NCBI GenBank assembly: GCA_031372065.1
Contig: JANMKN010000313.1
Span: 1 to 20,803, forward strand
From: Abditibacteriaceae bacterium
GTDB lineage: Bacteria; Armatimonadota; Abditibacteriia; Abditibacteriales; Abditibacteriaceae
Direction: 5' to 3'
Length of the DNA stretch: 20,803 nt
This document shows positions 7,371-20,803 of the stretch, one piece after another. Every line of letters begins with the position of its first letter. The first letter of the stretch is position 1. A model generated the notes under the pieces. The model did no database searches, was not told the DNA's origin, and saw only the letters and a list, made by a program, of their open reading frames with translations. Made by a program: the position numbers and the translations under genes.

Positions 7371-8582
7371 ATGAATTTTCAAGTCCGCCGGAATGATGTG
7401 CGAAACTTTTGGAGCGAAGCTCTGGTTGTATGGCTGATCTTTGTGGCGATGGCCTTTATGAGCCAAGAAGCAAAGGCCGGTGCTATTGGACGATTTAGTT
7501 TGCCTTACGTGATGCCGAACTCGAATCTAATAGTGAAAGGCTCTGTTCTCTGGGTCACTGAAAATTTGGATGGCGACGACATCCTACACGCTGAAATCAA
7601 AATTGACAGCGTTTTGAAGGGGAAATGGGAAACTGGCAACCTGTTTTTGCAGTTTCCGGCTCAGAGTAAGGCGAATTTGATAGGCAGGATAGTTGATACT
7701 TTAGCTAAGGACGAATACGCTCTCTTTTTCCTGAAAACGGATGGCGGCATTGTTCGCCCTGTTGATGAACAGCACATCAAGCTGCCGATTCGTCCGGGAC
7801 GCGTGCCGATGCCCGATGAACCCAACGAGACAGAATCGTTAATTCGTGACGAACTACTTTTTACGGCTTTTGGGCCATCAACTCTTTACTCAAAAGAAGA
7901 TGAAGCAAAAAAAGAAAGAGCAAAACAGCGTTCTGTCTGGGCGCCCTTCGGCATTTATTCGATGAAAATAGAAGCGGTGCGGCAACTGGGTTACCTCCCA
8001 GCCGCACCACAAACTTTGACTTTATTGGAGTCGTTAGCCTCCAGTCCGAATAGTGACGAACAAGCTATAGCTATTGCGTCCCTGCTGAATTTAAACCAAG
8101 CGAGTGTCTTGCCAATGGCTGTTAATTATTTGAAATCTGAGTCGCCAAAAGAACTTTTTCAGCCTTACACGATTGGTCATCCGAAAGATTGGGTTACGCG
8201 CGCAATTAGGAGTATCAAGAGCGTGGAAGCCATTGAACCATTAAGTGAATTGTTAAATTATCCAGAATCCCGTGTGCGGGAATCAGCCATTTGTGCTCTG
8301 CGACAAATTGGGCAGATAATTAAAGAACCGGGGCGCCCGCTAAAAGACTTGCGAGAAGGCAAAACAATCCCCTTTCTGGTCAGGGCGTTGGACGATTCAA
8401 GTCCTGAAGTCCGCTTGCAGGCAATCTGGGCGCTTTCCGAAATTACCTCAAAAAATCATTGGTTCCCGAACTATCGGTATCAAGATAAGGATTTTAATCC
8501 TGATGCCGAAAAAAAGATTATTGATCAATGGAAAGAGTGGTGGCGTGTTGAAGGCAGGGTTCTTTTTTATTCACCTGTTTAA
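7371..8582 (+). CDS. Secreted HEAT-repeat-containing protein
   Basis: Signal-like N-terminus ending in AKA; HEAT-like units AIEPLSELLNYPESRVRESAICAL and IPFLVRALDDSSPEVRLQAIWAL; C-terminal WKEWW. Confidence 0.78.
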   Translation: MNFQVRRNDVRNFWSEALVVWLIFVAMAFMSQEAKAGAIGRFSLPYVMPNSNLIVKGSVLWVTENLDGDDILHAEIKIDSVLKGKWETGNLFLQFPAQSKANLIGRIVDTLAKDEYALFFLKTDGGIVRPVDEQHIKLPIRPGRVPMPDEPNETESLIRDELLFTAFGPSTLYSKEDEAKKERAKQRSVWAPFGIYSMKIEAVRQLGYLPAAPQTLTLLESLASSPNSDEQAIAIASLLNLNQASVLPMAVNYLKSESPKELFQPYTIGHPKDWVTRAIRSIKSVEAIEPLSELLNYPESRVRESAICALRQIGQIIKEPGRPLKDLREGKTIPFLVRALDDSSPEVRLQAIWALSEITSKNHWFPNYRYQDKDFNPDAEKKIIDQWKEWWRVEGRVLFYSPV

Positions 8583-8664
8583 AACACGAAGTCATGCGCC
8601 GAAAACACGAGGTCAGGCACCAAAAACACGAGGTCAGGTGCTGGAAACACGAGGTCAAGCACTC
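8581..8664. repeat. Four 21-bp tandem repeats (plus a degenerate fifth)
   Basis: AAAACACGAAGTCATGCGCCG / AAAACACGAGGTCAGGCACCA / AAAACACGAGGTCAGGTGCTG / GAAACACGAGGTCAAGCACTC. Confidence 0.92.
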
Positions 8665-8864
8665 CAAATTTGAGGCAGGAACACTTTAGTTTGTAGACAC
8701 ACGCGGGCGCCCTCTGGGCAGATATCCCTACTTTTCTTCGGCGTCTTCCAACAATTGTTTCACATAAGCGGCTTGATCGGTTTTGCGGTTGGCAGCGAGC
8801 CATTCTTGTAAAAGCGCCCGCGATTCTTCTGCTAAAATCCCGTCGAGAAATTCCGCCCGTCACA

Positions 8865-15702: not shown

Positions 15703-18174
15703 TTAGCCTGAGCGATCATCGTTGAGAATCGTGCCTTGGCCTTGCCCATCCGCAATCGCGCCGCCACTGGAGCTGCCCAGATTCACGAAAAACGTCTCGT
15801 CGGCTTCATTGATTGTGTCGCCATTGATGGCAATCGTAATAATCTTTGTGGTCTCACCCGGCGCGAATGTCAGGGTGCCCCCTTGACCAACATAATCGCT
15901 TGGTTTGGTCGCGGTGCCATTGACTGCCTGATAAATGACCGTCACCGCTTCACCGCTCATCACTGATAATTTTACGGTGAAAACGAAATTAGTCGTGCCT
16001 GAATTACCCTCGGCTTTGCTCACATTGTTGATCGAAATTGTGTGGTCGTTATCGAGGATGCTGCCTTGTGCCAAACCATCGCTAATAGTGGCAAAAGTGG
16101 CGTTTTTAATCCCCACGCGAATGGTTTCGTTGGCTTCCTCCACCGTGTCAGCCAAAACGGGAACCACAATGGTTTTGCTGGTTTGGCCGGGGTTGAAGGT
16201 CATTGTGCCACTAATGGCCGAGAAGTCAACTCCGGCAGTGGCTGTGCCGCCGACTGTGGTGGCATATTCCACTGTGACCGTGCGGTTGGTAGCGCCACTC
16301 AAGGTCACAACATACAGTAAGTTATGGGCGCCGCGTCCGTCTTCGCTGACCGGATTGGCGTTTGCAATGCGAAGTGTTGGCAGTGGATCATCATCGGTGA
16401 TAGTGCCTTGCCCTATGCTGTCAGCGATGTTCGCGTTAGTGGCATTGGAGAGATTCACTTTGAAAGTTTCATTGCCTTCATCGGCAGTGTCGCCAAGCAC
16501 CATAACCGTGATGGTTTTGCTGGTTTGACCGGCAAGGAAAGTGCGCGAGCCACTGAGGGGTTTGTAATCAACCCCCGCGCGGGCGCTGCCGTCGGCTGTG
16601 ACAAAGTTCACGGTGACGGCTTTATCGCTGGCGGGTGAGAGTGTCACTGTAAACGTGGCATTAGTGGTGCCACTATTACCTTCGGTAACGGTTAAATTGT
16701 TGATGGAAAGGCTGGGAGCGGGGACTACTGCAACGCTGACTTTTGCTGTGTAAACATCAAAAGCCTTGAGCGTGCCATTGGGATTATTGCCCGTGCTGTT
16801 GGAATTGTCCGCCCATGAGGGATAAAAATTCCCTCCATAGAACGCGATCTCGTTGTAATCGCCGAACTCGTTAAGATTGTTAGCCGCCGCTGCATTGGAA
16901 GAGCCTTGGCTAACCTGTATGTTGGTGCCGAAGGAAGCGCCTCCATTGCTGCTGACGGCAGCAAAGAGTTGAGCATCGGTATTGGGCTGACTGTCATGGT
17001 CGGCGCCGCCACTGCCCGTGTCGTTGCGGCAGTCGTAGAAAGCCACAGCAATCTGGCCCGAAGTCGGATCAACCGCAATGGTTGGAAAAAACTGACTCTT
17101 GGTGCCCGTGTCGTCGTTGACGCGCACCGGGGCACTCCAAGTTGAGCCGTTGTTATCGGAAAAGCGCACAAAGATATTTGTGTCGCCGCTTTCGTCTGGC
17201 GCTTCATTGGTGTAGGACATATAAAGGCGGCCATTGTGCGCGCCGCCGCTGGTGTCCCAAGCGAGGTTGGCTTCTGCGTCCACGGAGCGGGAATTTTGTG
17301 GAGGGATGGTATCAAAACCGCCTACATTGGTGCCGGTGACCGTAATCGGCGCGCTAAAACCGCCCGCCGCCAGACCATTGGCATCCAAACTGGCGAAGAT
17401 GGTTTCTGGCCCTTCACCGTTTGCACCCTCTTGCCAGCAGACCAGCACCTGTCCGTTGGGGCCAATAGCAATGTCGCCAAAGTTGCCGGAGGAGCCGGGC
17501 ACACTCTGCGGTGTGCCAAACGTGCCGACTGTGCCGAGGCCAGTCACTTTGGCTCCGGCGGCAGTGATAACGCCGCTATCGGAATAATTTACCCACACTG
17601 TGCCAGCGCCCGTTGAAATCGTGGGTTGATCGCCCACAGCAAAAAAGGCGGCTTTGCCCGACAAACCGCCGGATTGTCCCGCACAATTCTGACACCAACT
17701 TTTAGACCGAAAAGAGGAAGAAGCGCGCGTGGAACGCACAGCGATTTTGGCCCGCTGTGTGAACGACTGACCGCCGTTGCTGCTGGAAATTACGACGACG
17801 TGCGGGCCGTTATTGAAATCGTTATCCAAATACGTCAAAAACAGATTACCAAATTTGTCGAAGGTGGCCTGACCATCACAACAAGCCGCCGGAATCGAAT
17901 CGCCGCCATCGGCAATGATGCCGTCTGAAGGGTCGGAATACCTCCACGTTGTGCCACCATCGGTGCTGTAGGCGGCAAACATTCCGTCGCCTGATAAATT
18001 CGAGGCCACAAAAAGCTGATTGGGATTAGTTGGGTTGATGGCAATGGTGGTTTCAGCTTGATAACCAGCGAGTTTGCTGACATTGATGTTTGTCGGCACC
18101 GCATGGGCCGCATCACCAAAAGACAAAGGCAGCATTAACCACAAGGCAACGGCGGAAGGCAATTTCAGTTTCAT
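15703..18174 (-). CDS. Secreted BNR/Asp-box (sialidase-like) beta-propeller protein with three Calx-beta domains
   Basis: Signal peptide ending in AHA; Asp-boxes STDGGTTW, SSNGGQSF, SDNNGSTW and SSNGGASF; three Calx-beta units of the type EGNSG...DY/DF...E.nETF.V.L...GTI.DD. AGGAG upstream of ATG 18174. Confidence 0.88.
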   Translation of the reverse strand: MKLKLPSAVALWLMLPLSFGDAAHAVPTNINVSKLAGYQAETTIAINPTNPNQLFVASNLSGDGMFAAYSTDGGTTWRYSDPSDGIIADGGDSIPAACCDGQATFDKFGNLFLTYLDNDFNNGPHVVVISSSNGGQSFTQRAKIAVRSTRASSSFRSKSWCQNCAGQSGGLSGKAAFFAVGDQPTISTGAGTVWVNYSDSGVITAAGAKVTGLGTVGTFGTPQSVPGSSGNFGDIAIGPNGQVLVCWQEGANGEGPETIFASLDANGLAAGGFSAPITVTGTNVGGFDTIPPQNSRSVDAEANLAWDTSGGAHNGRLYMSYTNEAPDESGDTNIFVRFSDNNGSTWSAPVRVNDDTGTKSQFFPTIAVDPTSGQIAVAFYDCRNDTGSGGADHDSQPNTDAQLFAAVSSNGGASFGTNIQVSQGSSNAAAANNLNEFGDYNEIAFYGGNFYPSWADNSNSTGNNPNGTLKAFDVYTAKVSVAVVPAPSLSINNLTVTEGNSGTTNATFTVTLSPASDKAVTVNFVTADGSARAGVDYKPLSGSRTFLAGQTSKTITVMVLGDTADEGNETFKVNLSNATNANIADSIGQGTITDDDPLPTLRIANANPVSEDGRGAHNLLYVVTLSGATNRTVTVEYATTVGGTATAGVDFSAISGTMTFNPGQTSKTIVVPVLADTVEEANETIRVGIKNATFATISDGLAQGSILDNDHTISINNVSKAEGNSGTTNFVFTVKLSVMSGEAVTVIYQAVNGTATKPSDYVGQGGTLTFAPGETTKIITIAINGDTINEADETFFVNLGSSSGGAIADGQGQGTILNDDRSG

Positions 18175-20007: not shown

Positions 20008-20047
20008 AAAAACGCGGCGAGAGAATGATTTCTCTCGCCGCGTTTTT
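20008..20047. terminator. Bidirectional intrinsic terminator
   Basis: AAAAACGCGGCGAGAGAA-TGAT-TTCTCTCGCCGCGTTTTT, a perfect 18-bp stem. Confidence 0.88.
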
Positions 20048-20052
20048 AATTT

Positions 20053-20115
20053 GCCTCCGGCTTCCTGCCTTCAGCTTCCCGCCTTCGGCTTCCCGCTTCC
20101 CGCTTCCTGCCTACG
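20053..20115. repeat. Nine tandem heptamers (GCYTYCN)
   Basis: GCCTCCG GCTTCCT GCCTTCA GCTTCCC GCCTTCG GCTTCCC GCTTCCC GCTTCCT GCCTACG; the last unit overlaps the stop codon of the orphan gene. Confidence 0.9.
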
Positions 20116-20491
20116 GATTCGGTGGCGTTGCCGGGCTACCCTGCTCTGTCGGGCCGGTGATACGATCTAACAAGGCTTCTTCGGCCTTGCCACGCAGAGC
20201 GCCGCGCAAAAGGGGTAGTAAGCCTTTGTTTAAAGCGTCTAACGCTGCGCCGTCAGCATCCATTTCAATCAACAACTGCACAATGGCTGTGATGTGACCT
20301 TGATAGGCCGTAGTTTTACCCTTGAGCGATTGAACTAAGGCCGCGATAGTCGCCATCTCGTGATCGGGCAAGTTTTGGTATTTGGTGCCTAATTGCCCCA
20401 ATACGCTGACGCCATCATCGCCGCGATCCACGATTTCCGTCAAATCCGAGTCCGTCTTTTGCCGCTCATACGGCACTGCAATGTCTGCCAT
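20111..20491 (-). CDS. Hypothetical 126-aa alpha-helical protein
   Basis: Strong GAGGAGG SD 6 nt before ATG 20491; amphipathic helices and a Pro-rich tail; downstream terminator. Confidence 0.8.
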   Translation of the reverse strand: MADIAVPYERQKTDSDLTEIVDRGDDGVSVLGQLGTKYQNLPDHEMATIAALVQSLKGKTTAYQGHITAIVQLLIEMDADGAALDALNKGLLPLLRGALRGKAEEALLDRITGPTEQGSPATPPNP

Positions 20492-20553
20492 TTCTGGCCT
20501 CCTCAAATATGAATTCCCTACCACGCAGGCAGGGTTACGACCAAAAATTCCAT

Positions 20554-20803
20554 TTTTCCCGCCAAGAAATCAAGAAAACTCACTCAGGTTTCTACTTTTC
20601 CCGCTGGGAAATGGTGCTACCTGACAAAGAAATCTCGTTTTCCCACTCAGATTTCTTGCTACCTGACTCAGGTTTCTCGCTACCTGACAAGGAAATCGAC
20701 TTTCCTCAGTGAGAAATCTCGCTACCTGACTCAGGTTTCTGCTTTTCCCACTGAGAAAACTCGATCCCTTAGTGAGAAAACGCCCTTTCCCACTAAGAAA
20801 AGC
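20554..20803. repeat. Degenerate 21-bp tandem array, at least 12 units, truncated by the window end
   Basis: Units start at 20554+21k with no indels; CTACCTGAC occurs at 20617, 20659, 20680 and 20722; TTTCCCRC-type units are interspersed. Confidence 0.93.

Follow-up and report, generated by a model that had tools for sequence, protein, structure and literature searches.

A helically phased non-coding array upstream of a small helical-hairpin gene in an Abditibacteriaceae genome: a possible recombination-spread repeat module

The stretch of DNA analysed here (the window; 20,803 nucleotides from an Abditibacteriaceae bacterium, GenBank assembly GCA_031372065.1) is the whole of contig C41 of the draft genome G000, and its 3' limit at position 20803 falls within a tandem array. 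Read on the minus strand, the array is followed by a short leader with a strong Shine-Dalgarno motif, the gene of a small helical protein, a run of heptamers and a hairpin that probably acts as terminator (Table 1). Elsewhere in the window, 59-829 and 1002-1721 encode tandem paralogs that look secreted and have AAK-rich linkers and, we assume, a discoidin-like domain, and 15703-18174 encodes a large protein, likewise secreted-looking, with three Calx-beta domains and repeats of BNR type.

Table 1: Features at the array-bearing end of the window.
Feature	Position	Strand	Remarks
Perfect 18-bp hairpin and T run	20008..20047	minus	arms 20008-20025/20030-20047, 100% complementary; putative intrinsic terminator
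Heptamer run	20048..20110	minus	8 clear units (20055-20110) and a degenerate ninth
ORF, 126 aa, helical hairpin	20111..20491	minus	acidic, pI 4.6
Shine-Dalgarno GAGGAGG	20498..20504	minus	6 nt 5' of ATG
Leader, 60 nt, array to start codon	20492..20551	minus	
Small 7-bp hairpin within leader	20516-20534	minus	
Degenerate 13th array unit	20531-20551	minus	
21-bp array	20552..20803	minus	12 phased imperfect dyad units; two half-site types, ~10.5-bp grid

The mean identity of the array at lags 21, 42 and 63 is 0.576 compared to 0.257 +/- 0.017 (maximum 0.315) in 1000 mononucleotide shuffles, which bears out the at least 12 phased 21-bp units noticed in an earlier reading of the letters alone (the sequence-only reading) and leaves a degenerate thirteenth in addition. 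Two interchangeable types of half-site, left and right, mix freely and make up all units, which are dyad-symmetric only imperfectly; pairing occurs at 59 of the 91 dyad positions and 4 of the 13 units pair at just 2-3 of their 7 positions. The GAGGAGG motif was correctly recognised in the same reading, but the gap that contains it is 60 nt to the ATG in the present phasing and not 62 nt, and no consensus sigma-70 promoter was found in this C41 leader. As a copy of the array on contig C102 is 97% identical, the comparison suggests that the C41 module is short of only a degenerate array leader of about 110-130 bp, and a candidate for the upstream continuation of C41 is C245, where a WD40-like gene precedes the array leader at the contig end.

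On the other side of the gene the hairpin had been called perfect, as it indeed is, and close copies of it lie 3' of the C102 paralog and also 3' of a gene-less array on C219. A motif shared at the C219 array end was considered as a promoter and set aside since it may be a unit variant. The count of nine heptamers stands for eight clear units, the ninth being only degenerate, and their proposed role as a defining second repeat is not supported: heptamers were not found downstream of the C102 and C368 paralogs, a 7-unit run lies at an unrelated locus, and the pattern matches 11 places. Short heptamer-like units also lie 5' of the array leader on C102, C245 and C103, and the heptamer stretch reaches 250-1365x summed contig depth in four metagenomes. 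The heptamers are a generic repeat and are treated as incidental.

The 126-aa helical ORF with its Pro-rich tail is a real gene, as had been proposed, because it has two paralogs in G000 (65% identity on C102, 44% on C368), its codon differences to the C102 paralog are 36 synonymous versus 44 non-synonymous, and a search with the family profile gave 34 hits, query included. phmmer gave 26 hits, four of them long repeat proteins, and 5 others that were poorly aligned or partial were left out of later alignments. The titles of the homolog records are mostly from Planctomycetota and Verrucomicrobiota, plus Armatimonas, with doubtful titles naming Klebsiella, Akkermansia and Kuenenia, and among 60 relatives only the congener G003 has a match. 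The structure predicted from 28 sequences (pLDDT 87.9, pTM 0.62) is a helical hairpin with a helix at residues 14-34, a loop with the conserved P42, a 53-residue helix at 46-98 and a helix at 103-112 followed by the Pro-rich tail, and a pI of 4.4-4.9 marks 6 of the 7 examined members of the family as acidic. Searches of Pfam, NCBIfam and PHROG with the protein returned no match, a PDB sequence search returned short matches to designed repeat proteins only and no PDB family, and every Atlas neighbour is below 0.9, with Pfam DUF6261 as a weak one at 0.77. Foldseek with a 5-sequence model gave nothing at E<=0.001 and the best VIA-align Z of 6.4 belongs to generic coiled coils. Furthermore, there was no profile match to an RHH or HTH domain and fold searches returned generic helical hits only, no transposase family was matched and the all-helical model shows no conserved HxH/Y site, and no catalytic motif was found in the protein. 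A search for longer fused forms gave one mis-started copy only, which is weak evidence, and viral contigs searched with one pattern held no relative.

The expectation that homologs would carry upstream arrays even with different units held for both paralogs and the G003 homolog, the array before the C368 paralog being a different one of 21/42 bp and that of G003 having a 41-bp period. In distant homologs the expected 21-bp signal is visible as a pooled peak, with a lag-21 excess of 0.09 in 32 loci versus 0.021 in mostly coding control windows (8 of 40 distant loci were left out as short or partial), but it is weak in a strict test locus by locus, where an array was found in 6 of 35 loci versus 19 of 213 control windows. 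The 95th control percentile is exceeded by 15 of the 32 loci and 8 of 15 clusters, and these loci are not independent since many derive from one metagenome. Partner genes had been suspected beyond the window edge; no conserved neighbour, and with it no partner NTPase gene, was found at the complete C102 and C368 loci or at 41 homolog loci. Genes pointing at gene-linked arrays are low in GC in 10 of 21 cases versus 14% of controls. Low-GC genes of immunity type recur 5' of gene-linked arrays, and three tandem genes directly 5' of the C368 array (L002:7400-9200, corresponding to G000:C368:11440-13138) are presumably SMI1/KNR4-like.

A scan of G000 showed that the locus is not the unique, self-contained cassette it had been taken for. 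We found 355 arrays, 314 of them intergenic, and 170 unit clusters; the intergenic periods, which correspond to two or four turns of the DNA helix, are 42 bp (137 arrays), 21 bp (124), 41 bp (39), 20 bp (11) and 22 bp (3). Only 55 of the 314 intergenic arrays precede small cytoplasmic helical orphan genes (43 such genes were seeded by eye and the set was then extended by phmmer), and the other 259 are solo. Non-seed homologs found by phmmer with enough flank have an upstream array in 14 of 23 cases versus 7.3% of 4398 genes, the period set for this count having been picked after these loci had been viewed. None of 54 array-linked genes encodes a hydrophobic N-terminus (versus 24%) and 26 of 54 encode a Pro-rich tail (versus 12%). 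The link between array and gene spans more than ten protein families, and the profile links from the window protein to sister helical families reach an hhalign probability of 21-25% at best, too little to claim homology. Of 20 array-linked genes sampled, 4 encode FN3 and one belongs to PQLLE (NF052641), a sister array-linked family matched with 113 bits at a cut-off of 80. Across the genome the units are dyad-symmetric, with a median reverse-complement self-identity of 0.55 versus 0.47 for the reversed sequence (n=299). WD40 enrichment near arrays was not seen with a 15-member set (0/248).

Two more arrays lie in the window itself. The one at 2675-2896, between what we assume to be genes for a conserved membrane protein and a uracil-DNA glycosylase, has a 41-bp period and shares its unit (78%) with an array on C207 that precedes an FN3-fused helical gene. 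A short 21-bp array at 8570-8717 lies directly behind a low-scoring orphan gene and weakly resembles the array before a PQLLE-family gene on C318. In a helical orphan family of ~157 aa (C43, C69, C239, C382, C395) the array is downstream of the gene in 5 of 5 cases.

Units are shared between a gene-linked array and 61 of the 259 solo arrays, and the shared part is usually the array alone. Solo arrays are frequent in convergent gaps (55 of 201 versus 61 of 573 control gaps, p 7e-8) and scarce in divergent ones (24 of 201 versus 146 of 573), and in tandem gaps 86 of 122 are closer to the stop than to the start. The C41 array family comprises at least four array-bearing loci with copies mostly behind stop codons, among them gene-less arrays on C141 and C400; its copies share the degenerate leader, which also recurs at the contig ends C103, C118 and C245 at unrelated loci, and not the tail. 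With 60 bp beside each array masked, a common non-array flank was found in only 19 of 268 within-family pairs, so that common ends are exceptional.

The idea of a repeat-associated mobile unit is supported by orthologous gaps that are empty in congeners. No array was present in the syntenic gap in 3 of 3 congeners for both pdxS and polA, and none in the thrB and clpN-like gaps of G002, the sole syntenic genome there; the congener intergenic DNA is too diverged for the junctions to be read exactly. At polA the congeners have a conserved downstream promoter region but no array. Upstream of its ortholog of the window SDR, G002 has a different gene, and the module is missing there; 7 neighbour genes examined in 3 congeners (21 loci) gave no intergenic array and four weak signals inside genes. 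A 300-kb sample of G002 held 3 arrays, about 10/Mb versus 58/Mb in G000.

Arrays are also found where gene order appears to have changed. In 3 of 3 congeners tpi adjoins the ortholog of the 119-aa gene of C103, from which an adjacency of the C102 kinase gene and the C141 gene was predicted, and G003, the only one of the 3 congeners with a kinase match, indeed has the kinase preceding the C141 gene. In G000 the tpi, kinase, C103 and C141 genes are cross-joined through arrays of the C41 family, copies of which apparently sit at both breakpoints of a reciprocal rearrangement, in a draft assembly where a mis-join is possible; the C103-C141 join rests on a 14-nt overlap, and in run X1 the array is present in collapsed form. 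A second case concerns miaA, where both breakpoints have arrays from a single family (cosine 0.56) nearby, in a comparison with G002 only. A systematic G002 sample, from which 12 contig-edge cases were set aside, showed an array at 5 of 32 broken versus 2 of 68 conserved adjacencies, never on both sides, and both arrays at conserved adjacencies look artefactual.

Array and protein sequence are uncoupled in several closely related pairs. At protein identities of 91, 87, 84 and 77% the arrays of a pair reach a similarity of just 0.51-0.57, with random arrays at a median of 0.40 and a 99th percentile of 0.58, whereas other pairs with 76-89% protein identity have kept similar arrays (0.63-0.88). 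For C41 and C102 the relation is reversed, with only 65% identity of the proteins and 97% of the arrays in a near-identical tract from -312 to about +59. As this tract joins two diverged genes, we infer from the alignment that array, leader and 5' end have recently been copied between them. It is doubtful that the 126-aa protein binds its own array sequence-specifically since array and protein are uncoupled and the protein is acidic.

Several explanations have been weighed for these arrays. It is unlikely, yet deserves to be taken seriously, that the array mainly serves cis-regulation of the promoter next to it, with its own protein (autoregulation) or a host regulator binding to it and with solo arrays as further sites or as remains of loci that have lost the gene. 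The dyad symmetry of the units would suit such a role, as would the location of the array ends about 25-230 nt 5' of the start codon, the SD motifs in 94% of array-linked genes versus 32% of controls, sigma-70-like promoters in 10 of 54 cases versus 6.4%, and a decayed gene remnant on C233 that still retains its array. Moreover, 25 of 41 distant homolog loci (0.036 expected) have an outward sigma-54 -24-like box at the far end of the array, between -322 and -393, which would place the array at an enhancer position; the corresponding end of the C41 array lies beyond the contig. However, the -12 element of these boxes (in the upstream regions of L008-L060) is non-canonical and they are often antisense to the upstream gene, and in G000, although an rpoN-like gene is present, the box shows no enrichment next to arrays, being seen at 5 of 55 and at 27 of 259 where 0.16 per 400 bp would be expected, so that it is no general part of the module. 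Regulation also fits poorly with solo arrays that shun divergent gaps and prefer 3' ends, with the polA gap, where the promoter region is conserved without the array, and with the uncoupling of array and protein. Similarly unlikely is that the arrays are minisatellite non-autonomous elements of the BrickBuilt kind, moved in trans by a host transposase, and that the helical gene is a passenger. One gene, G000:C343:2581-3120, which by its motif we take to be RAYT-like, lies 138 bp from an array, and empty sites and the 3'-end bias agree with such elements, but it is the single RAYT-like gene found with one tblastn query. About 170 unrelated families, all with helical period and with few shared flanks, are a poor fit to one transposase-defined element, and the link to the gene is kept in distant phyla and more than ten protein families, even if BrickBuilt is a case of dispersed intergenic minisatellites of 23 and 41 nt in bacteria (PMC4596501).

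Two further explanations concern what the array might encode. That it acts as RNA, a tandem-hairpin transcript bound by the protein in a guide-like or structural role, is improbable: the dyad units do form hairpins in silico (an uncontrolled folding) and a sense sigma-70-like promoter was seen by eye 5' of the array at C34 and C368, but half-sites mix freely, several units hardly pair, and the constraint lies on a period of 20-22 bp as expected for the phase of a double helix. Unique spacers, as in CRISPR or TIGR-like guide arrays, do not occur between the units, which recombine two half-site types. Even less probable is that the array encodes a 7-residue repeat peptide of an upstream or separate gene. 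The minus strand of the window does have a frame without stops over 78 codons, on C102 the open stretch is 206 codons, and some open frame exists in 176 of 232 arrays (an uncontrolled count), but no more than 13 of 227 arrays fall largely within called genes. Since periods of 20, 22 and 41 that are not multiples of three occur at equivalent positions, and since unit variation is spread evenly over codon positions (0.41/0.30/0.30) and not biased to the third, we argue that the arrays are non-coding. A C41 array that is non-coding and tied to the 126-aa gene is supported.

A small helical protein gene directly 3' of a binding-site-like tandem array is known from the plasmid centromere or operator arrays of ParR-parC, omega and KfrA, and the module resembles them in the position of its gene directly downstream of the repeat array. 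Unlike these systems it has no RHH/HTH match and no partner ATPase, is chromosomal and multicopy, and its array is uncoupled from the protein. The window protein matches neither PQLLE (NF052641) nor DUF6261, both of which are names without known function. In the REPIN-RAYT system each REPIN family is tied to a RAYT gene copy. Like REPINs, the arrays are palindromic extragenic repeats that appear to spread within one genome (PMC3116915), and they too are missing at orthologous sites. REPINs, however, consist of separated REP doublets that number in the hundreds (PMC3116915), and a tyrosine transposase moves them. In the present arrays the units abut one another and keep phase, a family has 1-8 copies, and no transposase family, the Y1/HUH tyrosine transposases included, was matched by the linked protein. 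In layout the arrays also resemble BrickBuilt which, together with MITE464/PgRS, belongs to the minisatellite MITEs of Porphyromonas gingivalis; these, like the arrays here, are dispersed, multicopy, lineage-restricted and always intergenic tandem arrays with a leader, which is degenerate in the C41 family, and the P. gingivalis units are 23 and 41 nt long (PMC4596501). BrickBuilt, however, is a single family whose 19 copies carry IS5-like terminal inverted repeats, and no linked gene is described for it in the part of the source covered here (PMC4596501). In G000 about 170 unit families keep a helical period, flanks are seldom shared, and a gene for a helical protein is linked. As in MITEs the arrays are intergenic and multicopy (314 of 355, and at least four loci for the C41 family), but C41 and 54 other arrays precede an intact-looking gene and are therefore not devoid of coding capacity. 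In summary the module resembles BrickBuilt and REPINs in behaviour but lacks defining features of both.

Our main reading, to which we give a probability of about 0.42, is that C41 carries a gene-bearing copy of a helically phased non-coding array module, likely spread by recombination and free of a transposase, in the order array, short leader with strong SD, helical-hairpin gene and probable terminator. Self-spreading appears likely because there are more than 300 arrays, because these are absent at matching sites in relatives and because they sit at rearrangement points. In the proposed model array DNA would be copied to new sites, mostly without the gene, each copy would rapidly renew its unit sequence while the helical period is retained, and copies of one family would serve as crossover or conversion points, as the C41/C102 tract and the tpi/kinase rearrangement may illustrate. 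The protein might oligomerise via its 53-residue helix, which in the model is about 8 nm long and near two DNA turns, and from its anatomy and the persistent link might bind or bridge phased arrays through shape and not base sequence. Such a shape-reading protein could explain why the period is conserved but not the sequence and why the gene is kept beside the array. The acidity of the protein counts against this role as it is unusual for a DNA binder, and the copying mechanism itself is hypothetical, which speaks against spread by recombination.

More tentatively, and with the odds against it, these modules could represent an undescribed, widespread class of transposase-free selfish or genome-shuffling elements, in which small helical-hairpin proteins would polymerise on any two-turn-repeat DNA, pair arrays and drive copying, low-GC cargo capture and rearrangement. 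On the same uncertain footing the protein would come in single, doubled or FN3-fused forms, and G000 would have undergone a burst that left over 300 copies belonging to about 170 families. A search of openly accessible literature listings returned no description of a module of array plus helical gene. If the main reading is correct, bacterial repeat elements could be constrained by helical phase and not by sequence, spread without a recognisable transposase and reshape gene order, which would also account for the assembly fragmentation of such genomes and give a testable role to more than ten unnamed helical protein families including PQLLE and the FN3-fused ones. It would also caution against taking every array as a regulator of the adjacent gene. 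As it is among the smallest forms, the 126-aa protein is well suited for biochemistry.

Possible traces of decay were seen at single loci. In the L020 and L022 homologs an in-frame TAG follows codon 11, so that these are pseudogenes or read through the stop. On C102 (L001:7015-7240) a three-unit remnant of the C41 array family precedes what is left of the 3' part of a WD40-like gene, whose intact counterpart at the C245 end shares 84% identity with it; recombination or loss of cargo may have left this locus as a scar.
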